A program made the translations under genes and the position numbers. A stretch of DNA of 32,000 nucleotides, from positions 1 through 32,000 of the forward strand of contig JBHLMI010000016.1 in the NCBI GenBank assembly GCA_048938295.1. Direction: 5' to 3'. The notes beneath the pieces are model-generated. The model was not told the DNA's origin. It searched no databases and worked only from the letters and a program-made list of their open reading frames with translations. Of this stretch, positions 1-14,487 are shown one piece after another; the stretch's first letter is position 1, and each line of letters opens with the position of its first letter. This DNA comes from Promethearchaeota archaeon (GTDB lineage: Archaea > Asgardarchaeota > Hermodarchaeia > Hermodarchaeales > Hermodarchaeaceae).

Positions 1-12
1 CTTCGATATTAT

Positions 13-131
13 GCTTTGGCAACTTTACTGGTGCGATAACCGCATAAGAAGAGGATCGACTTTTCCCGTTATCAGCCTAGAAAACTCCTGAAAAAATTTA
101 ATCGGTTATCGCCCTTGAGAACGTTTTCCTA
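13..131. repeat. Dispersed intergenic element, copy 1 of 5
   Basis: GCGATAACCG (33-42) and CGGTTATCGC (103-112) form a perfect 10-bp inverted repeat. Inside are TTTTCCC-GTTATC (61-73), GAAAACTCCTG and GAAAAAATTTAAT; the element ends in AGAACG...CCTAA. The same blocks recur in the same order near 713, 3499, 4765 and 5487. Confidence 0.85.
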
Positions 132-644
132 AGGACTTAATTGAAGTTGATAGGTGGCTAGGCTGAGTTTCTTTCCCCATGGTGTATCAATAGTTGATTC
201 TTTCATCAGCTTGAATCCATTCTTCTCGTAAAACCTTCTAGCATGATCTTCATTCTTACCAGCATTCACTATTATCATTCTGATATCCTTAATCTTCGCA
301 TTCTCGACTACATGTTTTAGAAGATGAGTTCCAATGCCCTTTCTCTCATGACTTGGAAAGACTACAATAAGATCTTGTTCCGCTGTTTTAACATCCTGCT
401 GTATTATCTGAGCAAAACCTACTAATTCGTTTTCTTCAAGGGCTATATAGAAGGTCGCTTCTCCAGAAGTAACAGCCTTCATCAATGGTTCCTCTGCAAG
501 AGCCCTTCTCACATACTCTTCTGGAATGCCAAACCTAACAACATTTTCCTGATACAGCCTACTATTCTTATCCGCTAAATAGTCAAGAAACCTCTTACTG
601 AGAGCTTGAATATCCCTCAGACTAGCCTTTCGTATTAAAACCAT
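129..644 (-). CDS. GNAT-family N-acetyltransferase
   Basis: 171 aa with an acetyl-CoA motif A-like segment (VVFPSHERKGIGTHLL) and the C-terminal N..ARRFYEKNGF motif. Confidence 0.9.
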   Translation of the reverse strand: MVLIRKASLRDIQALSKRFLDYLADKNSRLYQENVVRFGIPEEYVRRALAEEPLMKAVTSGEATFYIALEENELVGFAQIIQQDVKTAEQDLIVVFPSHERKGIGTHLLKHVVENAKIKDIRMIIVNAGKNEDHARRFYEKNGFKLMKESTIDTPWGKKLSLATYQLQLSP

Positions 645-712
645 GAAGAGAACACATCTCCAACAAATTAACTAAAATCCCCTCACCAATCGGTCATTGG
701 GTTTTCGTGCTT

Positions 713-805
713 CTTATAACTAACTTTTCCTGTTATCATACAAAAAACCCCTGGAAATATTATTCTGTTATCGCCCCTAAGAACGCCTTCTTTAGTCTTT
801 GCGGG
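713..805. repeat. Dispersed intergenic element, copy 2 (left part shortened)
   Basis: CTTATAAC...TTTTCCTGTTATCA...AAAAAACCCCTGGAAATATTATT-CT-GTTATCGCCCCTAAGAACGCCTTCTTTAGTCTTTGCGGG. The 3' ~40 bp closely match copy 4. Confidence 0.85.
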
Positions 806-912
806 TACGAATTAGTGTACAGTAAATCTTGCAGGTTAATTTTCTAATCCTAACTTGCGGAGATTTTTCCATTAGGAGTCAGCTAATGAGTTGACTAAAT
901 GGATTCATGATT

Positions 913-1440
913 CTAAAAGGCCGCATGACATTCTTCCATGATAGCACATTTTGTACAGACTTTTCGCCTCGTATAAACCACAATTCCTCCCAGCACAGCT
1001 AGAAAGCCAATTAACGAAATTACCGCAAATATGGAAAAATTCAGAAAGAACGAAATGACAATCAAAACAATTGGTATTAACCATATAATGAAGAAATTAT
1101 ATCCCCATTTTTTCGCGCAAACTACATGTTTCGTTAGGTCCGATTCTTTCCATTGTTCTAAAGGCACTAACCTCTCAACAGTCGACCCATCTTTTGCTGT
1201 GTCCTTTACTTTGTAGTAACAATATTGACAATGCCATAGCGGCATTGCTAAAAAGTAGTAGAGATTCGAATATAGCAAATACACCACGGCTGCCCAGAAA
1301 TTCAGGAATAATATCCCACTGGTGCCAAACGCTATCAAAACTATCGTTAACACCACCATAACAGCTGAACCATAGAAGGGACACTTGGGAAAAACTCCCA
1401 AAAACGTAAGTTTAGCCTCTTGCTCCACCACCATAATCAT
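913..1440 (-). CDS. Hypothetical membrane protein with Cys clusters
   Basis: 175 aa, about four hydrophobic helices; CQYC and CTKC-x4-C motifs lie in the soluble segments. Confidence 0.75.
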   Translation of the reverse strand: MIMVVEQEAKLTFLGVFPKCPFYGSAVMVVLTIVLIAFGTSGILFLNFWAAVVYLLYSNLYYFLAMPLWHCQYCYYKVKDTAKDGSTVERLVPLEQWKESDLTKHVVCAKKWGYNFFIIWLIPIVLIVISFFLNFSIFAVISLIGFLAVLGGIVVYTRRKVCTKCAIMEECHAAF

Positions 1441-1500
1441 TCACTACCCGATCAAATGTATCTATTTTTTTTAGCTCTCACAACTGCAAGTTTCGTAAGA

Positions 1501-1902
1501 TTACTCTTCCTGTTTAGGCCACTTCCATGCATACCAAACAATCAGCGCAGTAAATACAAGGTATAAAATTCCCAAAAATATCTCATAAGCGGGCACAGTT
1601 AAAATTGCTGTGATCAAAAAAACGAGATCAAAACCTACCATGAATATACCTACAATGAGGTTTACCCAACGATTCGCTTTATCCGGTAATGTCAGGGACG
1701 GGAACACCATAACAGCCGGAATCACCGTAATTAGTGTTATTAGCAACAAAAGTTCATTAGTCATTGGTATACCGCCCCAGATTTCTCCGGATATTATTTG
1801 CTCCAACTTCCCTGGCTCAAGAAATCGGATGATATCCCCCACAAAACCTGTTAACAATCGAGTTATCCATAATATTGAAAGCTTTATCTTCACATCTTCC
1901 AT
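1501..1902 (-). CDS. DUF6326-like membrane protein
   Basis: 133 aa, about four TM helices. The N-terminus (KIKLSILW...GDIIRFLEPGKLEQIISGE) and central SLTLPDKANRWVNLIVG resemble DUF6326 proteins as I recall them. Confidence 0.7.
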   Translation of the reverse strand: MEDVKIKLSILWITRLLTGFVGDIIRFLEPGKLEQIISGEIWGGIPMTNELLLLITLITVIPAVMVFPSLTLPDKANRWVNLIVGIFMVGFDLVFLITAILTVPAYEIFLGILYLVFTALIVWYAWKWPKQEE

Positions 1903-1999
1903 AATGGGCTCACGTCCTCAGATTAGCGATATCTTAGGTCATCTGAAACCTTGTATTATTTATTACTTGTGAGTTCCTGAAACTGTGGAAGTGAAAAAA

Positions 2000-2060
2000 A
2001 TGAAAGCGATGGTATGCACGAAATCTGGATCACGCTGAGATCTTCCAACTTTCTAAATTT
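2000..2060 (+). pseudogene. N-terminal remnant of an MDR-family NAD(P)-dependent alcohol dehydrogenase/quinone oxidoreductase
   Basis: ATG at 2000 reads MKAMVCTKSGS. Removing one base near 2033 continues as PEIFQL, matching the family N-terminus MKAIVCTKYGPPEVLQL. Confidence 0.6.
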
Positions 2061-2071
2061 CTGGTAGAGAA

Positions 2072-3109
2072 TTATTTATTCAGACTATCTTTCAAAACAA
2101 CATCTATCAACAGTTCATCGTATCTCTTTTTTTCTTCTATCATTGGCATATGCCCTGAATCTTCAAAAATGATGAGCTTTTTACCTTTTTCAGCATCTAA
2201 GTTGTCATAGAATTTCTCAACAAGAACTGTGGGAGTAACCACATCGTATTTTCCTTCAAAGAAGTAGATGGGAACTCTAATAGATTGTATTTCTTTGATA
2301 AGATTGACATTTTTCAATTCCTCCCACATTGTTTTCATAGTAAAATGGAGTCCCTTGTTTCTGAGCGTTCTAATTCCTTCTGATAGTGAATATTCGGGTG
2401 AAGTTAAGAAATATAACACTAAAGGTATCATTTGCCTAATAGGCTTATCACGTACGAATCCTCCATAGTGGGTAATGTGCCCTTCCATTTTTAGGAACGT
2501 TTTAGGCGACTCATAAGGTGGTGGGCCTATTGCTTTTATTGCATTTTGCCTGCCTACCTCTCCGGATTTTTCAGCTTCTTCAACTAGAAAATTATATGAT
2601 ATTTTTTGCTGTTCATAGCTGTTTATTTCTTGCGCGACTCCAACATATGCATGTATTTTCTCCGGATATTTGTATGCAGTCTTAATTCCTATTATCGTTC
2701 CCCCTGAATGCGCAACAATGAAAACTTTTTGCGTGTGAAATCTATTTCGTAAATAATCAATTAACTCATTACAGTCCTCAACAAATCTATCTAAAGTCAT
2801 TGAATCAACTGGGATATCACGATTAAATGATTTGCCAGCCCCTCGTTGATCCCAATGAACTACTGTAAAATGTTTAATTAACTCAGCATCATATTTACGC
2901 GAACTTGACATCCCTAACAAAGGCGCACCAGGACCACCATGCAAAAATAACAAAACTGGATTATTTTGATCTGTACCTCTGATAAATATCCATTGTTTTA
3001 AATCACCAAGTGTAATCTCCTCCAATGAACTTATACCGTTAGCTGTCTTGATTCTAGTCGAATTTCTCAAATAATATTTATACAATAATAAACCGACATA
3101 GAGAAGCAA
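2072..3109 (-). CDS. Alpha/beta hydrolase (proline iminopeptidase-like), N-terminally anchored
   Basis: HGGPG oxyanion motif, WDQRGAGKS, nucleophile elbow AHSGG, acid GKYD and His in SGHMP. The frame stays open upstream to a TGA at 3170-3172 and adds a hydrophobic helix, so the true start is probably upstream of 3109. Confidence 0.9.
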   Translation of the reverse strand: MLLYVGLLLYKYYLRNSTRIKTANGISSLEEITLGDLKQWIFIRGTDQNNPVLLFLHGGPGAPLLGMSSSRKYDAELIKHFTVVHWDQRGAGKSFNRDIPVDSMTLDRFVEDCNELIDYLRNRFHTQKVFIVAHSGGTIIGIKTAYKYPEKIHAYVGVAQEINSYEQQKISYNFLVEEAEKSGEVGRQNAIKAIGPPPYESPKTFLKMEGHITHYGGFVRDKPIRQMIPLVLYFLTSPEYSLSEGIRTLRNKGLHFTMKTMWEELKNVNLIKEIQSIRVPIYFFEGKYDVVTPTVLVEKFYDNLDAEKGKKLIIFEDSGHMPMIEEKKRYDELLIDVVLKDSLNK

Positions 3110-3343
3110 AAAGAATCCTGCTATGGATACAACAATTTGTAAAAATAAATTCAGAGTTTTTCCCTTTTTTCAAAACAATTGTAGCTTAAGCATATAAATC
3201 ATGAGTGCTTGCAAGTCTTGATCAAATAAGAGCACTCTAACGAAGTCTAGAACAATTTTCAATTGAATCCTATATCCTGCGAAGTACACCTGTTATAATA
3301 AAAGTCACACCACAGATAGGGCTAATTCTAGGGATATCACCCG

Positions 3344-3463
3344 ATTGAAGGCAACTGGGTCATAGAGAGACGCTATCCGTTGGAACAGATTGCTGAAGCT
3401 TATCGCCATATCGAAAAATGGCATAAAAAAGGCAATGTAGTTGTAACGGTAGACCATAGTTAG
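3344..3463 (+). pseudogene. C-terminal remnant of an MDR-family NAD(P)-dependent alcohol dehydrogenase
   Basis: Plus-strand frame reads [39 protein letters not shown], matching the family C-terminus [31 protein letters not shown]. There is an in-frame TAG at 3329 and no start codon. Confidence 0.8.
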
Positions 3464-3498
3464 ATGAAACGAATCCGTGTATATGCAGCAGAACACGT

Positions 3499-3606
3499 AC
3501 TTTACCGGTGCGATGACAATAGAAGGAGCCTAATTTTCCGGTTCTCACACGAGAAAACACTTGAAAAAGTTAAATCCATTATCACCGTTTAGAACGCCTT
3601 CTTAAA
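3499..3606. repeat. Dispersed intergenic element, copy 3
   Basis: ACTTTACCGGTGCGATGAC (cf. ACTTTACTGGTGCGATAAC in copy 1)...TTTTCCGGTTCTCA...GAAAACACTTGAAAAAGTTAAAT-CC-ATTATCACC...AGAACGCCTTCTTAAA. Confidence 0.8.
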
Positions 3607-3727
3607 TATGGTCTACTCCACAAAGCTTCCAGACTTTCTCTCCATTAAATCCCAAAAGTCAAGATTATTAGTAAGGCTATTAAAGACACATTCCATCATT
3701 TTTGTAAATTTTTCGTAAATTCTTGTC

Positions 3728-4591
3728 TTAGAAAATTTCCTTGAAAAGTAAAAGAAGCGTTTTGACTCCTTTTTTATCATAATCCAGCTTTGGATGGTAA
3801 CAAGTAATACTCATCCCGATTAGTTGGTTTCTTTCCTTTATGAGAGTAAGCAATTCTTGGATTTCGTTGTATGAGAGACCACCCTCAACAGGATACTGTA
3901 TTGCTGGCATGATTTCTTTATCCAAGACATCAACATCAAAATGGAGCCAAAGTGGCAAATCCGGATTCTGGAATGAGCCAAGGCTTCGACGAAAGGTGGA
4001 TCCAATTCCATCTTTTAAGATTGATTTGCGATCAACTAACATGATATTCGACCTTTCAATAGAGTCGAGTTCACCTATTCCGTATGCAATGACATTTTCC
4101 TCAGGCAGTAACGGACCTCGTCCCGTCATGTAGACGATTTCTTTCGACAAATGCCCTGTCAAGGCGGCTAATTCCAAGTCAGCAGGCTCACCGGTTGTTG
4201 ATGTATCAAGAGTGTGAAAATCAGCGTGTCCGTCGAGAAAGAAGAGGTTCAAAGGTTGCTTCATTACATTAAACGCGTCAAAAATCCCCATTAGAATGGC
4301 ACAGTCTCCGCCCAGTACAATCGGGAAACTATCTTGAGCTAATTCATCACCTAGGATTCTGGATAAACTCAGAGATACCTCTCGCCACACATCAAAATTC
4401 AAAACATTTGTAATCGGATCTTTCTTATTTGAAAACATAGGAATGTGCAAATCGCCACGATCAGTTAGGTGGTGTCCTTTGTTCTGAAGTAAGGAAATCA
4501 CCCCTTCGTCTCTAAGGGATTGGGCTGGGTTTTCAACTTCAGGAGGCGTTCCATCTCCATTAAACGGAACTCCAATGATCGTAATTTTCAT
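3728..4591 (-). CDS. Arginase/ureohydrolase-family protein
   Basis: GGDC, DGHADF (DxHxD) and HFDVDVLD (DxD) metal-binding motifs; 287 aa. Confidence 0.9.
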   Translation of the reverse strand: MKITIIGVPFNGDGTPPEVENPAQSLRDEGVISLLQNKGHHLTDRGDLHIPMFSNKKDPITNVLNFDVWREVSLSLSRILGDELAQDSFPIVLGGDCAILMGIFDAFNVMKQPLNLFFLDGHADFHTLDTSTTGEPADLELAALTGHLSKEIVYMTGRGPLLPEENVIAYGIGELDSIERSNIMLVDRKSILKDGIGSTFRRSLGSFQNPDLPLWLHFDVDVLDKEIMPAIQYPVEGGLSYNEIQELLTLIKERNQLIGMSITCYHPKLDYDKKGVKTLLLLFKEIF

Positions 4592-4764
4592 AGACTACGT
4601 CTCTATCTCTAATCACCCAAGGAATTTACTGAAAAATGTATTCAACAAGAACGGATGCCATTGTCGTCTTTAGTCTCGGTGGTAGATGAGCTATCACGGC
4701 AAAGGTGACACATTTTATCTTGGGCGCTCTTTATTAGACAGTATTAATTTAGTCTTCGGCGTTC

Positions 4765-4898
4765 GCTTTTGGCAGACTTTTCTTGAGCGATGACAGGGTA
4801 AGACTACAGCTGTCCTTTTTCCGTTGTCGATTAAAAAAACTCTGAAAAAAATTAAACCCGTTATCGCCCGCAAGAACGCCTTTCTTAGCCTTTGCGGG
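4765..4898. repeat. Dispersed intergenic element, copy 4
   Basis: GCTTTTGGC...GCGATGAC (4787-4794)...TTTTTCCGTTGTCG...AAAAAAACTCTGAAAAAAATTAAA-CCC-GTTATCGC (4860-4867)...AAGAACGCCTTTCTTAGCCTTTGCGGG. Confidence 0.85.
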
Positions 4899-4967
4899 AA
4901 TTCCTAGTTTCCCAGAAATTGTTGTGGGTTGAGTGCACAAAGGCGTCATTTAAGAAGAAACAAGAGA

Positions 4968-4988
4968 GGGTGCCCCAGCAAGGGGCAC
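4968..4988 (-). terminator. GC-rich hairpin, terminator-like, downstream of 5022..5390
   Basis: Perfect 8-bp stem GGTGCCCC/GGGGCACC with a 5-nt loop. On the minus strand it is followed by the pyrimidine tract CTCTCTTGTTTCTTCTT. Confidence 0.55.
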
Positions 4989-5021
4989 CGATGAGTACGT
5001 GGTATGTTTTCGGGGGTGAGT

Positions 5022-5390
5022 TTACTTGAAGGCACTTCGGACGAAGAAGAGATAGATCACGATGATGAGGGGGAGGATGATGTAGACCAGTGAAAAGTAG
5101 TCCATGAGGCCAGAGGACCAGAAGTTGTAGGCTCCGAGAATGATAGAGATAAGGTTGATGATGAAGGTGAGCCACCAGGCCCAGCCCTTCAAGGTCCAGA
5201 GTCCCCAGAAGAGGATGAGGCCGATGATACCCATGATGAGAATGACGGCACCGATTGCCACCAAGATCATTCCGAAGATAGGAATCGCCAAACCACCCAT
5301 AATCTGGAGGGCACCGAGTGCGAGTTGTGCGAGTGCAGCAAGGAGTTGTAGAATAGCGATGATGGTTACGCCCATTGGTCGTTCAGACAT
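5022..5390 (-). CDS. Small four-TM membrane protein (DUF2127-like)
   Basis: 122 aa, RPMGVTIIAILQ N-terminus and GLWTLKGWAW motif; the frame is entirely hydrophobic. Confidence 0.75.
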   Translation of the reverse strand: MSERPMGVTIIAILQLLAALAQLALGALQIMGGLAIPIFGMILVAIGAVILIMGIIGLILFWGLWTLKGWAWWLTFIINLISIILGAYNFWSSGLMDYFSLVYIILPLIIVIYLFFVRSAFK

Positions 5391-5416
5391 TCTTTACACC
5401 AAATATTGGTTTTTTC

Positions 5417-5438
5417 TTACTTCCAAGAGTGGAAGTAA
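5417..5438. promoter_or_regulatory. 8-6-8 palindrome, operator-like
   Basis: TTACTTCC-aagagt-GGAAGTAA, about 30-50 bp upstream of the 5390 start codon. Confidence 0.4.
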
Positions 5439-5486
5439 TTACTTTCCTCTATGTAAACATCTCCCTTAAAAATCAAATATCGCTTA

Positions 5487-5593
5487 GCCATAACTCTTTA
5501 GACCCGGCACAAATCTGCTTTACCCTTAAAAAGCTCCCAGAAAACCCTTGAAAAACTTATGTAGTTATCGTTCCCAGAAACGCCTTCCTAAAT
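5487..5593. repeat. Dispersed intergenic element, copy 5 (most degenerate)
   Basis: GCCATAAC (5487-5494)...AGAAAACCCTTGAAAAACTTAT-GTA-GTTATCGT (5564-5571)...AGAAACGCCTTCCTAAAT. Confidence 0.7.
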
Positions 5594-5743
5594 CTCCACC
5601 ACTCAAGAAAACACGATAAACAAATACTTAACAAACCCCCAGATCTTAAAACATAATTTCGTCTTGAACTCTTTTACTTTAACATTTAAACTACAGGTCA
5701 AAATTGAATAGTTAATTAGTAATTAGCCAAAGGATAGTGTAAA

Positions 5744-8269
5744 ATGAGCCAAGAAAAATCGCCGTTCTGGAGCACATCTCTTCCTGACCTTTTTTCCTTA
5801 CTTGAAGCAACTTCCGAAGGATTGACAAGTGACGAAGCAAAGAATCGTTTGTATCGATTTGGTGCTAATCGTTTAGGATCTAAAAAGAAATCTGGACGTC
5901 TAGCACTTTTTCTTAGTCAATTTAAGAGCCCCATTATTATCCTTTTATTGGCATCATCAATTCTCGCGTTTTTACTTGGGGATCAATTGGATAGTCTCAT
6001 CATTATAGCAATTGTCTTGCTTAGTAGCATACTTGGGTTTTGGCAAGAATATAGTGCCACCAATGCGGTTGAAAAGTTATTGGCCATTATCCAAATCCGG
6101 GTAATGGTGAAGCGAGATAACGAATTCAAGGAGGTACCTCTTGAAGAGGTCGTGCCAGGTGAAATTGTTTTACTCGATGCTGGTGATATCATTCCTGGAG
6201 ATTGCCGTATCATTGAATCCAAGGATTTGTTTGTGAATGAAGCCACATTAACTGGTGAAACATATCCGGTGGAAAAAAGGGAACTGACATTACCGCCTAA
6301 AACGGCACTCAATCAGCGTGAAAATGCGTTATTTATGGGCACTCATGTTGTTAATGGGACTGCAACAGCCGTAGTTATCTATACTGGTGTAAATACTGAA
6401 TTTGGCAAAGTCTCTGAACGATTAAGACTACGTCCACCATTGACTGAATTTGAACGCGGGATTCGACGATTTGGACTTATGTTGATGGAGGTAACATTGC
6501 TTCTATTACTTGTCATTCTTGCCATCAATGTTATTTTAGGTCGTCCATTTTTGGATTCATTTCTTTTCGCTTTGGCTCTTGCAGTTGGACTTACACCCCA
6601 ATTGCTTCCTGCCATTATTACTATCACATTAAGTCAAGGAGCAAAGCGAATGGCCAAAAGCAAGGTAATTATTCGCCGCTTAAACGCAATAGAAAATTTC
6701 GGAAGCATGACGGTTCTATGTACTGATAAAACCGGTACACTTACTGAAGGGAAAATCCAGATTCATTCTGCTGTAGATTTCAATGGACACGAAGCAGAAA
6801 AAGTTCTGCGATTAGCTTATATTAATGCCAGTTTCCAAAGTGGTTACCAAAATCCTATTGATGATGCAATCCGCGATTATGCTAAGCTTGATTTAAGTGA
6901 ATATAAAAAACTTGATGAAGTCCCTTATGATTTTATTCGCAAACGCCTGAGCATTTTAGTGGCAACCGAAGATACTCATGCAATTATATCAAAGGGAACA
7001 CTGCAGAACATCCTCGCTGTTTGCTCTACTGTAGAGACAGATACGGGTTTAACTAGTATTAGTGAGGTGCGAGATCAGATTTTACAATTGCACAAAAATT
7101 TCAGTAACCAAGGTTTGCGAACTCTTGGAATTGCTTATCGTGATGTAGGCTCAACATTGAGCATAAACAAAACTGATGAAACGGATATGACCTTTGTAGG
7201 ATTTCTTATCCTATTTGATCCATTAAAGTCACAAATCGTTGACACTTTATCCCAGATGCATAGTCTAGGTGTCACTCTGAAATTAATTTCTGGCGATAAC
7301 AGCTTCGTTGTATCAAATGTTGGTCAAAAAATAGGGCTTGAAAATCCGAAATTAATAACTGGACCTGTCTTGCGAGAGATGAGTGACGAGGCATTGATCA
7401 AAGTAGTGAATGAAGTATCCCTCTTTGCTGACGTAGAACCCAATCAAAAAGAGCGGATAATTATTGCGTTACGTAAAGCTGGAAACGTAGTCGGTTATAT
7501 GGGTGATGGAATCAATGATGCCTCAGCTATTCATGCTGCGGATGTCGGAATATCTGTTGACAGTGCTGTCGATGTAGCCAAAGCGGCGGCGGATATAGTA
7601 CTTTTAGAAAAGGATTTGCAAGTTTTAATTAACGGAGTTCAAGAAGGACGCCGGACCTTTGCGAATACAATGAAATATGTATTCATCACGATTAGTTCAA
7701 ATTTTGGTAATATGTTTAGTATGGCAGGCGCCTCGTTGTTTCTTCCATTCCTCCCGTTATTACCTGAGCAAATTCTTGCGATTAATTTTTTAACGGATTT
7801 TCCATCAATGGCTATTGCACAAGATAATGTGGATTCTTCAATGGTGACGAAACCCCGTCAATGGAATATTAAGACAATAAGCCAAGTAATGACAACCTTT
7901 GGAATTTGGAGTACAATTTTCGATTTTCTCACCTTTGGTCTTCTCTTGTTTATCTTATACGCAACACCGGAACAATTTCGGACTGGATGGTTTCTCGTAT
8001 CAATAGCAACCGAGATACTCGTTCTTTTTGTAATCCGAACCCAAGGGCCCTTCTATAAGAGCAGACCAGGTCGATATCTATTGATTATATCGCTAATCAT
8101 TATGATTTTCACGCTTATACTCCCATATACTCTCGTTGGCGCGCTCTTAGGCTTAACTCCACTTTCTGCTCCTTTCATCTTTACTCTACTTGGGATTACA
8201 ATTTTGTATTTCTTAACGACCGAATTAGCTAAACGTGTCTTCTTTAGAAGAATTCAAGTCTTCCAATGA
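5744..8269 (+). CDS. mgtA: Magnesium-translocating P-type ATPase (MgtA/P3B type)
   Basis: TGET actuator motif, AVGLTPQLLP in M4, phosphorylation site DKTGT, GDGIND hinge, SSNFGNMFS; 841 aa. Confidence 0.85.
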   Translation: MSQEKSPFWSTSLPDLFSLLEATSEGLTSDEAKNRLYRFGANRLGSKKKSGRLALFLSQFKSPIIILLLASSILAFLLGDQLDSLIIIAIVLLSSILGFWQEYSATNAVEKLLAIIQIRVMVKRDNEFKEVPLEEVVPGEIVLLDAGDIIPGDCRIIESKDLFVNEATLTGETYPVEKRELTLPPKTALNQRENALFMGTHVVNGTATAVVIYTGVNTEFGKVSERLRLRPPLTEFERGIRRFGLMLMEVTLLLLLVILAINVILGRPFLDSFLFALALAVGLTPQLLPAIITITLSQGAKRMAKSKVIIRRLNAIENFGSMTVLCTDKTGTLTEGKIQIHSAVDFNGHEAEKVLRLAYINASFQSGYQNPIDDAIRDYAKLDLSEYKKLDEVPYDFIRKRLSILVATEDTHAIISKGTLQNILAVCSTVETDTGLTSISEVRDQILQLHKNFSNQGLRTLGIAYRDVGSTLSINKTDETDMTFVGFLILFDPLKSQIVDTLSQMHSLGVTLKLISGDNSFVVSNVGQKIGLENPKLITGPVLREMSDEALIKVVNEVSLFADVEPNQKERIIIALRKAGNVVGYMGDGINDASAIHAADVGISVDSAVDVAKAAADIVLLEKDLQVLINGVQEGRRTFANTMKYVFITISSNFGNMFSMAGASLFLPFLPLLPEQILAINFLTDFPSMAIAQDNVDSSMVTKPRQWNIKTISQVMTTFGIWSTIFDFLTFGLLLFILYATPEQFRTGWFLVSIATEILVLFVIRTQGPFYKSRPGRYLLIISLIIMIFTLILPYTLVGALLGLTPLSAPFIFTLLGITILYFLTTELAKRVFFRRIQVFQ

Positions 8270-13200: not shown

Positions 13201-13238
13201 GTCCCGATTTGAAGGGTGTCAATGGTAGGTTAACGACA

Positions 13239-13850
13239 ATGTCTGCTATTCGACGATTTATGAGCTGGCTTGGTGGCGGACCCGATCTGAAGAAGCTCAT
13301 CTTTCGCCTCGATGTTTTCTGCCGGAAGCTCGATTTGCAACGAAAGATGCTTGAAAAAGAAGCGAGTAAAAGCCGTGAACGCGCGAAAAAATATCGCCTT
13401 TCTGGTAATATGGATGCTACGCGGATGTACTTGCAACACCATCTGCGATTCCAAAAATGGGCCCTGAGCGTAGATGCCTATCGTCTCCGTATTGAAGGTT
13501 TACAAACACAATTACGCCAAAGCGAAGCCATGGGTGAAGTGGCCAAAATCCTAGGACAGCTCAACTCTGCCCTTGGCGGACTGAAGAACCAAGTCAAGGT
13601 TCCTGAGGTTGCACAACTCGTCGATCAGATTGAAGGCAACCTCCGTCACTTCGAAATGACCCAAGAAGTCGCCGAAGCGGGAATGGAACGAATGGCCGTT
13701 TCCACCGAGGTCACTGATGGCGAAGTGAAAGACGCACTTCGGGAGCTCGATTCAGAAATCGAAGTTGAAACAGGTACTTCACTCCCCGAACCCGAAAAAC
13801 GCGTCTCTGAACTAGAAAAAGAAATTGAACGATTAAAGGAGGAGGGCTAG
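13239..13850 (+). CDS. ESCRT-III protein, Vps2/24/46 (CHMP1-3)-like
   Basis: Amphipathic N-terminus MSAIRRFMSWLGG, basic helical hairpin, acidic C-half, C-terminal helix ELEKEIERLK. ATG at 13239 chosen; the ORF track starts at TTG 13209. Confidence 0.8.
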   Translation: MSAIRRFMSWLGGGPDLKKLIFRLDVFCRKLDLQRKMLEKEASKSRERAKKYRLSGNMDATRMYLQHHLRFQKWALSVDAYRLRIEGLQTQLRQSEAMGEVAKILGQLNSALGGLKNQVKVPEVAQLVDQIEGNLRHFEMTQEVAEAGMERMAVSTEVTDGEVKDALRELDSEIEVETGTSLPEPEKRVSELEKEIERLKEEG

Positions 13851-13854
13851 AAAA

Positions 13855-14487
13855 ATGGTTAAATTCTGGGAAAAACTCTTTCCGAAAAAACCTGAACCTA
13901 AAGAAGACACGATTGCCCGGATTCATCGGGTTACAGACAAACTTGAAGTCCGTAGCCGTCAATATGAAACGAAGGCTAAGGACTCGAGGATTAAGGCTAT
14001 CCGTAATGTACGCCGCGGTGATCGAAAGGCTGCTAAATTACAGCTACGTCGACGCCAACGCTATCTGCGCAAAGCCCGTCTTATTGAGCAAGAAATCGAT
14101 TTGATGGAGCGTGGTGTTGAAGCCATCGATCAAGCTCGTGGAGAAACCGAAGTTATAAGCGCCCTCAAAGGTATCGGTTCTGAACTGGAGAACTTACGAG
14201 AGACCGCTTCACCAGAAGTTGCACGTGAGGTTATTCTTGAAACACAAGCCCTCATTGAGGAAGCTGAAGCCACTGAAGAAATCCTAGGTCTCGGCCTTGA
14301 GGACGAAGAAATGGACGCTGAAGTTGATGCTGAACTTGAGGACATCGAAACCATGATCGCCCTCGAAGAAGCGGGTCAGCTACCTTCTGTACCTGAAGGC
14401 GAAGAAGAGCTCCTCGAAACCTCAGAGGAGCGACGCGAGCGAACAAAGCGAGAACTTGAACGCCTGAAAAAGGAAGTCAAAGAATAG
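13855..14487 (+). CDS. ESCRT-III protein, Vps20/32/60 (Snf7/CHMP4)-like
   Basis: N-terminal FWEKLF amphipathic helix; A...RRGDRKAAKLQLRRRQRY matches the Snf7 helix 1-2 pattern; DAEVDAELEDIE helix; MIM2-like LPSVP; terminal helix RELERLK. Confidence 0.85.
   Translation: MVKFWEKLFPKKPEPKEDTIARIHRVTDKLEVRSRQYETKAKDSRIKAIRNVRRGDRKAAKLQLRRRQRYLRKARLIEQEIDLMERGVEAIDQARGETEVISALKGIGSELENLRETASPEVAREVILETQALIEEAEATEEILGLGLEDEEMDAEVDAELEDIETMIALEEAGQLPSVPEGEEELLETSEERRERTKRELERLKKEVKE

Follow-up and report, generated by a model that had tools for sequence, protein, structure and literature searches.

In Candidatus Hermodarchaeum, co-oriented repeats with a short shared core delimit exchangeable gene cassettes between vps4 and the ESCRT-III gene pair

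What are five homologous intergenic repeats doing between a handful of unrelated small genes, and how did those genes come to lie between them? The question is raised by the left end of the window analysed here, a 32,000-nt stretch that opens contig C6 (JBHLMI010000016.1) of the Candidatus Hermodarchaeum assembly G000 (GCA_048938295.1; 2.52 Mb in 66 contigs). The initial annotation had compared this row of repeats and genes with an integron, and suggested a non-canonical cassette array or a cluster of attC sites lacking integron integrases (CALIN). We found that the moving unit is the segment from one AACGCCTTC core to the next, and that cassettes are gained, lost and reordered between species, some transfers being recent. 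The reading that we favour, with a probability of about 0.58, is that the window holds the distal end of an integron-like cassette array, built in the intergenic region between vps4 and the genes of ESCRT-III (endosomal sorting complex required for transport III) and joined by site-specific recombination in trans. In its working the array resembles an integron, or a row of accreted elements flanked by attachment (att) sites; it does not, however, belong to the integron family.

An nhmmer profile made from the five window copies was run against all 66 contigs. It matched 4755-4899, 2-144, 3477-3618, 691-805 and 5472-5598, all on the plus strand and with E-values from 2.5e-33 to 1.9e-19, so the five homologous, co-oriented elements of the initial annotation are all where it had put them. 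No further copy was found in the 66 contigs at E <= 10, save one weak reverse self-hit, and the element is thus clear at this locus only, as had been noted for the window. Because window position 1 is the start of the contig, with copy 1 at the assembly break, the array is cut at its left edge. Each copy had been drawn with a left and a right box. These were correctly placed and are clear in copies 1, 3 and 4, where the left box starts 72, 68 and 73 nt, respectively, before the right box, but copies 2 and 5 show no more than a degenerate ATAAC word in place of the left box (CTTATAAC at about 713 and GCCATAAC at about 5488). A third GTTATC box lies in the middle of the window copies, 36-37 nt ahead of the right box. 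The repeat runs further right than had been drawn, past the core into a module of ~55-60 nt; its best-conserved part lies just right of the right box, where a 5-nt variable spacer is followed by AACGCCTTC at 120, 782, 3593, 4875 and 5579 (Table 1).

The anatomy was refined by aligning 35 elements. The left end is defined (ATCTTCGG...TTTGGCAG) and is followed by the left box GCGATGAC, about 20 variable bases, the middle motif TTTTCC-GGTTATCACCC-AGAAAAC, an A-rich stretch and the right motif GGTTATCGCCC, which is a direct repeat of the middle motif 37 nt further on. Besides the left inverted box, the arm (~130 nt in all) thus holds a direct pair of GGTTATCRCCC-AGAAAC motifs, spaced by 37 nt, and the variable 5-nt spacer; the left box is wholly missing from many functional-looking elements. 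Next comes the near-invariant core AACGCCTTC(TT), of 9 bases, with a TATA-like TTWAR word after it, and then one of a few alternative modules of ~55-60 nt. Module A, found after about 30 of the 45 cores in the genus, consists of TTTAGTCTTTGCGGG, about 20 variable nt and TTTTGCAGGTTAA, and holds two direct TTGCRGG words, while module B reads TTAAATATGGTCTACTCCACAAA...CATCAAATCCCAAT (window 3602-3660). A third flank type (type C), seen behind the core of copy 5, lies in G013 directly against the vps4-side core. The modules are dispensable, since only 3 nt part the core of copy 1 from the stop codon of a GNAT acetyltransferase gene. The word AACGCCTTCTT, which marks the core region, occurs at four other sites in the genome, all in unrelated contexts. 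As a separate observation, TACTCCACAAA is found both in module B (window 3614-3624) and, in the vps4-side arms of L028, L034 and L036, in native sequence immediately left of the core, and it resembles a 10-mer, TACTCACAAA, at the sites of seven co-oriented copies on contig C32 (G000:C32:249-14712); this may be a shared motif or chance.

To locate the point at which cassettes are joined, 18 pairs of sites were compared in identity profiles with bins of 15 nt. In 17 of the 18 the core is where homology sets in or breaks off, with 80-100% identity on one side and background on the other. When two sites have the left cassette in common, their identity is 80-100% as far as the core and has dropped to background by the second bin beyond it, and pairs with a common right cassette are the mirror image; the single pair alike across the core (L029.3420 and L031.5098) has both neighbouring cassettes in common. 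In three-way alignments with informative sites, the switch maps to an interval bounded by the spacer and a point about 5 nt beyond the core. Copy 3 is an arm resembling L027.759 joined to an arginase cassette that is identical to L026.476 from the core rightwards. The arm of copy 1 is orthologous to L025.303, L026.476 and L030.2498 (86-100% identity per 15-nt bin over most of its length and 73-80% near the core), and in these four species it has three different right neighbours. Furthermore, G011 and G012 differ by one whole cassette, carrying a major facilitator superfamily (MFS) gene, that was gained or lost exactly core to core. The initial annotation had named scattered copies and a fixed gene order among the outcomes that would count against a cassette array; neither holds, since the copies are not scattered genome-wide and gene order between them varies among relatives.

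Transfer between species can be read from the arginase cassette. Compared with G011 per 50 nt, identity is 70% just left of the core at 3593 and 100% from that core onwards; it stays at 92-100% across the gene, drops to 78-88% in the cassette's own arm and is 36% beyond 4883. Overall, identity of the cassette is 93% with G011 and 90% with G012, as against 73.7% and 79.8% for core genes, the 73.7% being the identity of the ESCRT flanks in the same genome pair (G000/G011). A GNAT cassette reaches 92% identity, with core genes at 82.5%. Between G012 and G011, the block of copy-1-type arm and arginase is 94.3% identical, the amidase cassette 93.1% and fam37 89.3%, as against 67-79% for the genes past the last element and 73% for core genes. 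Since the cassettes are 89-94% and the distal genes 67-79% identical, the latter on a par with core genes, the part with strong elements is young and exchanged, and the distal island old and vertically inherited. In this pair identity declines with distance from vps4, and element scores tend to do the same; because both fall away from vps4, the data fit entry of new cassettes at the vps4-proximal end. The closest species (about 90% identity in core genes) has only one cassette in common with the window, that of DUF6326, a hydrolase and a remnant of alcohol dehydrogenase (ADH), and its neighbours differ on both sides between the two.

Read evidence came from assembled Logan contigs, with runs X1, X2 and X4 among those matched. 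The window arrangement is present in two runs. One X4 contig joins 114 to 3591, placing the copy 1 arm beside the arginase cassette in a G011-type junction; excision in this strain was considered as its source and rejected, because arrangement and variants match a G011-like species. A second joint, 806 to 1997, has a short side of only 21 nt. In X1 and X2, contigs at about genome depth lead from a vps4-side arm (CTATCATGAACACTTAACTTATCTCTGGAA) into the core at 782, jump from there to 1997 and, beyond 2017, enter an intact ADH. This combination of vps4-side arm, module A and intact ADH is probably the unassembled first, vps4-proximal cassette of this genome's array.

Where does the array sit? 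In every genome with arrays its position is fixed, with vps4 and the ESCRT-I/II genes on one side (vps4, a UEV/Vps23-like gene, Vps28, EAP30 and Vps25) and a Snf7 pair on the other (two Snf7 genes, then a zinc-PH adaptor). In the present assembly vps4 lies on contig C53 (1-801), cut at residue 119, and since it is on this separate, truncated contig the vps4-proximal part of the array is missing. The sister genus has vps4 and Snf7a side by side in divergent orientation, with about 200 nt between them; therefore the array was built inside that spacer, and because it lies in between, the genus has a split ESCRT cluster in which the ESCRT-III pair has no adjoining vps4. By its model, the element was detected in 11 of 14 further Hermodarchaeum genomes but not in any of four sister-genus genomes, the copies in the genus being always clustered, on one strand and often reaching contig ends. 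More distant Asgard genomes gave borderline matches alone (E about 0.01). Exact-pattern scans of GTDB representatives, JGI metagenomes and IMG/VR returned multi-copy or model-confirmed matches in Hermodarchaeum-type contigs only; bacterial matches and three large metagenome contigs were rejected as carriers, being single chance matches within coding sequence. In IMG/VR there were nine single pattern matches, of which the model confirmed none, and the module A word had no match. No virus or plasmid with the site was found among the GTDB, JGI metagenome and IMG/VR contigs scanned.

We then asked which parts of the element are native to the locus. The vps4 border of the array holds only TTATC, about 12 nt, AAAACGCCTTC and a module. 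Some 45 nt upstream of vps4, the array-free sister genus carries AAAACGCCTTCTTTA(G), and in L103 TCTTTGTGG as well, and AAAACGCCTTCTTTA(G)(TCTTTGTGG) also stands at every cassette junction; the first ~15 nt of module A are native vps4-upstream sequence in L103 as well. Because they occur upstream of vps4 in the array-free genus, the core and the start of module A are native, and judged by this position the core region is probably part of the vps4 promoter or leader. In local alignment the arm matched neither the vps4 5' region nor the sister-genus vps4-Snf7 spacer better than shuffled sequences did. The idea that the arm is a worn native copy was accordingly discarded, including by-eye matches (GCGATG to the vps4 start; AACTTATG) whose scores equalled those of shuffles. 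With no detectable derivation from native sequence on either side, the arm is cassette-borne, and it is conserved across unrelated cargo. In the sister genus we also noted that, in L102 (about 5926-6030) and L104, 22 nt right of the native AACGCCTTCTTTA echo the first ~7 vps4 codons (AAGATATTGTGCGCTGCTCAAC versus AAGGTATTGTGCACTGCTCAAC), which looks like a short direct duplication around the array-free site.

A core taken from a probable promoter or leader raises the possibility that the repeats are purely regulatory, serving as promoter, operator or terminator for co-regulated accessory genes. The TATA-like TTWAR after the core, the direct GGTTATC and TTGCRGG word pairs, which resemble protein-binding sites, and the position of the arm upstream of the minus-strand genes, which are the majority, would all suit such a role. 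The intact genes between the window copies are indeed all on the minus strand, as first described (6 of 6 open reading frames, ORFs), to which a plus-strand ADH remnant can be added. Across the arrays, however, element orientation is constant throughout and independent of the genes, the cassette ORFs being on the minus strand in 27 cases and on the plus strand in 17 (n = 44), and this mixture of strands beside elements that all point one way disfavours gene-specific promoters. A regulatory repeat would also leave unexplained that interspecies homology blocks start and end at the core, that cassettes are far more alike between species than core genes, and that the element is confined to this island. 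We therefore regard a purely regulatory function as improbable; a promoter or terminator role may exist alongside a joining role, but alone it is unable to explain the data.

The mechanism that we propose for the integron-like array is as follows. A cassette consists of an optional module of ~55-60 nt, one or occasionally several cargo genes in either orientation, and an arm of ~130 nt. A site-specific recombinase acting in trans would join cassettes at the core, arm and module are predicted to provide accessory binding sites in the manner of a complex attP, and new cassettes would enter at the vps4-proximal end. Site-specific recombination in trans at a complex att-like site fits the data because the junction is focused, an identity segment is shared with the native site, polarity is constant, and a conserved non-native arm carries repeated words. 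The main rival is homologous recombination at the repeats without a dedicated recombinase, arm, core and module being no more than portable homology; it could proceed by Campbell-type single crossovers, or by double crossovers after DNA uptake. Campbell insertion naturally yields co-oriented direct repeats, the core is native vps4-upstream sequence at this very locus, and transfer is seen within the genus only, where homology exists. Against this, all mapped junctions but one fall within about 20 nt around an 11-nt identity, despite the 70-90% similarity of a 130-nt arm; the right box of copy 3 has diverged, leaving almost no homology left of its junction; and junctions between module A and module B sites have only AACGCCTTCTT in common. 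In addition, the arm is conserved across unrelated cargo yet not native, which suggests a sequence-specific role for it. On balance we hold homologous recombination alone to be unlikely, although it is far from negligible.

Several observations nevertheless weigh against site-specific joining in trans. A tblastn search with both tyrosine recombinases found no recombinase gene in or beside any of the 23 array loci; this lack of a recombinase in cis, like that of IntI, suits homologous recombination. One arm, that of L032.6350, is a mosaic whose internal breakpoint lies about 60 nt to the left of the core, which shows that homologous exchange within arms does occur. The core region is also the longest invariant stretch, where homologous crossovers would tend to resolve. 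The arm of the arginase cassette (78-88%) is less alike than its gene (92-100%), which is unexpected for a simple move of the whole unit. Finally, in the parts of the window that they cover, the Logan contigs showed neither a circle junction nor excision within the population.

Which enzyme could act at the core? No recombinase was found among the array cargo, and neither a serine recombinase nor a Y1 transposase was found in the genome. A 443-aa tyrosine recombinase (C33) was rejected as the array enzyme because searches of the other genomes of the genus did not find it. An Xer-type protein of 313-315 aa, present in 13 of 14 genomes, is the one tyrosine recombinase that the genus conserves; the 313-aa protein (G000:C32:33154-34092) exceeds the cut-off of NF040815 XerA (262.7 versus 220 bits) and that of NF001399. 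Its identities track species divergence and look vertical, and in the sister genus it was not found in three of four genomes, the fourth giving a weak partial match. The Xer-type recombinase is the sole candidate that can be named, and it is a lead rather than evidence of action. The link rests on a contrast between two genera, Xer homologues are patchy in other Asgard archaea that do not have the element, and no 11-6-11 Xer-like site is evident at the core, all of which tells against this candidate and the reading that it would serve. Around the core, short inverted words (AAGAA and TTCTT) flank CGCC; the element is unlike a candidate dif on C32, at about position 57786.

How far does the likeness to integrons extend? 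Co-oriented sites part cassettes of variable content and order here as they do in integrons, and archaeal CALINs have been published and are enriched in Asgard archaea, among them a Hermodarchaeum metagenome-assembled genome (MAG) with two attCs on another contig and a macro-domain cassette (Ghaly et al., 2022; PMC9668308). A canonical CALIN with divergent attC sites, its IntI encoded elsewhere or supplied from outside, would likewise present mostly single-gene cassettes between co-oriented sites, and the inverted AAC/GTT boxes do pair better on the plus strand (23 G:T pairs). However, none of the further tests supported the integron label. Among 15 genomes of the genus including this one, no integron integrase (TIGR02249), which is a tyrosine recombinase marked by an IntI-specific extra domain, exceeded the 265-bit cut-off, and the best full-length match was the Xer-type protein (154 bits). 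A 137-aa IntI-like N-terminal fragment was found in G013 on a 4.4-kb contig unlinked to arrays (L106, G013:C49:2-376; 148.7 bits over TIGR02249 positions 1-125), and may be related to the canonical CALIN of the PMC9668308 Hermodarchaeum MAG if G013 is that assembly. The other end of the L106 contig carries a second tyrosine recombinase.

The boxes depart from RYYYAAC/GTTRRRY beyond the triplets, as had been cautioned: the right box GGTTATCGCC has T and C where R is needed, the left box consensus is GCGATRAC, and over the 35 elements the AAC/GTT triplets alone fit the R-box consensus. Folding of the five copies as single-stranded DNA gave z values from -0.06 to -1.68 on both strands, no better than shuffles, so the bottom-strand fold that had been envisaged finds no support. 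The A-to-G change in the left box of copies 3 and 4 does pair as G:T on the plus strand, but there is no covariation across the 35 elements: 81.2% of left and right box positions are paired, equal to the shuffled mean, and one pair changed on both sides. Conservation is thus at the level of sequence, whereas attC sites are conserved through their folded bottom-strand hairpin, and Rfam gave no match for the whole window at gathering score or for 1-6000 at E <= 1. The homology switch lies 10-15 nt 3' of the right-box GTT, at AACGCCTTC and not at G|TT, the left box is dispensed with by many functional-looking elements, and the primary site adjoins vps4 rather than intI. In the attC tables of PMC9668308, three contigs that bear the element (JAEOSK010000033.1, JAEOTD010000128.1 and JAEOUH010000039.1) are absent, screening of those assemblies being unconfirmed. 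A canonical CALIN is accordingly very improbable.

Still less probable is that the repeats are non-autonomous transposon copies, such as miniature inverted-repeat transposable elements (MITEs) or insertion sequence remnants, or relics of tandem segmental duplication. The non-coding unit of ~100-140 nt is repeated and has internal inverted words, and a TnpB element lies elsewhere in the window, as transposition might have it. The copies nevertheless keep a single orientation at a single locus, and terminal inverted repeats and target duplications are lacking, the 5 nt ahead of the core not being identical to the 5 nt after it. What lies between the copies is unrelated cargo that differs from species to species, and the genome has neither of the Y1 and serine enzymes sought above.

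Tandem accretion of att-flanked elements is known from cis-mobilizable elements (CIMEs) beside integrative and conjugative elements (ICEs) in Streptococcus and from satellite islands at tRNA genes. There, too, successive integrations at one att site leave co-oriented direct repeats of an identity segment, the units have no recombination genes of their own and use an enzyme in trans, and the identity segment duplicates the terminal part of a host gene region. The direct repeats of the present array likewise share an identity segment with the unoccupied native site, but its units are of 0.6-3 kb and usually carry one gene, and the target is a promoter region, not the 3' end of a gene. We know of no integrase-bearing helper element for these cassettes. 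In the minimal mobile elements of Neisseria, cassettes are exchanged by homologous recombination in conserved flanks. They share with this array alternative cargo between conserved sequences at a fixed locus, exchanged among relatives without a dedicated enzyme; however, theirs are whole-gene flanks with one cassette per site, whereas here many cassettes are stacked, with a dedicated repeat and junctions on a core of 9-11 nt. The pdif modules of Acinetobacter plasmids have 28-bp sites of 11-6-11 form in alternating orientation (PMC11705084). Like them, and like integrative mobile elements exploiting Xer (IMEX), small modules without a recombinase would here use the host chromosome-dimer resolvase, and the Xer type is the only conserved tyrosine recombinase in this genus; the sites here, in contrast, are of about 150-200 nt and all direct, and no dif-like core is recognisable.

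Compared with sedentary chromosomal integrons and CALINs (including those of PMC9668308), the array shares a row of mostly single-gene cassettes with co-oriented sites in a fixed place, cassette content and order that differ between close relatives, sites that are alike within a genome, accessory cargo (GNAT, hydrolases, transporters) and an end near the primary site that looks younger. It differs in having no IntI, no integrase-adjoining attI, no R and L boxes and no structure signal, and in a junction that lies outside the inverted boxes, at AACGCCTTC. Moreover, the ~130-nt arm is upstream, not downstream, of the majority gene orientation; the cassette genes read towards the primary site, which makes a common Pc-type promoter impossible; and the core is native upstream sequence of a housekeeping gene.

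Taken together, these comparisons allow the tentative proposal, for which we would not claim even odds, of an undescribed gene-capture system in which small cassettes with one-way arms are stacked at short native sites beside housekeeping genes and traded without IntI or attC, whether by the host Xer-type recombinase on a complex site or by an enzyme of an unrecognised kind. If true, and if such arrays recur in the genome with repeats of their own, this would be a general way in which genomes of this Asgard lineage stay plastic. To our knowledge, gene acquisition is poorly understood in Asgard archaea, which of all known groups are most closely related to eukaryotes. The only archaeal cassette system that we know to have been described is the canonical integron, found through attC and IntI searches, and searches of that kind would miss arrays like this one. 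Here discrete units cross between species whose core genes are about 74-80% identical, at a defined 9-base junction and without integron parts, which raises the question of which enzyme joins AACGCCTTC sites. The array also places foreign genes where the machinery of cell division and membrane remodelling has its control region, and should the mechanism prove new, archaea would gain a candidate tool for site-directed insertion.

Table 1. Repeat copies, modules, cassettes and bordering genes in the window (bit scores are those of the element model)
Feature	Position	Strand	Details
Copy 1, arm and core, truncated by contig start	2..128	+	96.6 bits; left box GCGATAAC 33-40, middle box 68-74, right box GTTATCG 105-111, spacer TTGAG 115-119, core AACGTTTTC 120-128
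Copy 2, short arm, left box not clear	692..790	+	73.3 bits; middle box 732-738, right box GTTATCG 767-773, core AACGCCTTC 782-790
Copy 3	3478..3601	+	86.4 bits; left box GCGATGAC 3510-3517, middle box 3541-3547, right box ATTATCA 3578-3584, core 3593-3601
Copy 4	4756..4883	+	97.1 bits; left box GCGATGAC 4787-4794, middle box 4823-4829, right box GTTATCG 4860-4866, core AACGCCTTT 4875-4883
Copy 5, last and weakest	5472..5587	+	63.6 bits; degenerate left box about 5488-5495, right box GTTATCG 5564-5570, core 5579-5587
Module A of copy 2	791..850	+	TTTAGTCTTTGCGGG, about 20 variable nt, TTGCAGGTTAA; TTGCRGG words 799-805 and 829-835
Module A variant behind copy 4	4884-4935	+	TTGCGGG 4892-4898, TTGTGGG 4922-4928
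Third flank type (type C) behind copy 5 core	5588..5718	+	window 5578-5718 84.4% identical to L036 6765-6905
GNAT acetyltransferase gene, 171 aa	129..644	-	Pfam PF00583 4.6e-17; stop codon 3 nt from copy 1 core
Cassette 2 cargo	913..3109	-	175-aa membrane ORF 913-1440, DUF6326 1501-1902, alpha/beta hydrolase 2072-3109
Decayed zinc-ADH cassette gene	1997..3463	+	N-terminal remnant 1997-2029, C-terminal remnant 3359-3460
Arginase cassette, core to core	3593..4883	+	module B 3602-3660, gene 3728-4591 (minus strand), own arm 4756-4874
DUF2127-like membrane protein gene, 122 aa, G+C about 0.51	5022..5390	-	
ESCRT-III (Snf7) gene pair, far border of island	13209..14487	+	Pfam PF03357

Core-to-core intervals (n = 30 in 12 loci) have a median length of 1365 nt, and 23 of the 30 hold one ORF. 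The cargo across the arrays includes enzymes (an arginase-family protein, zinc ADH, amidase, alkyl sulfatase, nitroreductase, GNATs and hydrolases) and membrane functions (MFS and ABC transporters and many membrane proteins). The arginase-family gene of the window matches Pfam PF00491 (4.4e-28); for its GNAT gene no homologue was found in other arrays. In the second cassette, identity to L037, from the closest species, is 89.9% over window 1506-3073; the 175-aa ORF is absent there. The hydrolase gene of this cassette is inverted between the two ADH remnants; by tblastn the remnant is 59% identical over 34 aa to the intact ADH of L025 (E 2e-10). An intact ADH cassette adjoins an element in L025 and L036 and is present in G012 and G013. 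The G+C content of the DUF2127 cassette is 0.51-0.52 (window 4951-5400), that of the hydrolase 0.31-0.37 and that of the genome about 0.46; the cassettes next to the DUF2127 cassette are at 0.33-0.45, and such mixed values among adjoining cassettes fit separate origins. A strand-skew sawtooth was not evident in the array at 300-nt resolution.

The alpha/beta hydrolase has more than 6000 homologues that are 70-88% identical, in Asgard lineages, Bathyarchaeia, Thermoproteota and Anaerolineales, and Logan contig depth is 250-2400 over its gene versus 15-35 over the remaining window; the gene appears to be widely shared in these sediments. Between vps4 and the Snf7 pair, the cassette array is accompanied by an older variable island, which in this genome carries genes for a P-type ATPase, DUF2769, an amidohydrolase, HisH and HisF and a 371-aa ORF. 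In two relatives, a four-gene block (fam56-59) lies left of the element in L033 (G004:C48) and L034 (G011:C30) in opposite orientation relative to it, and therefore points to inversion within a cassette.

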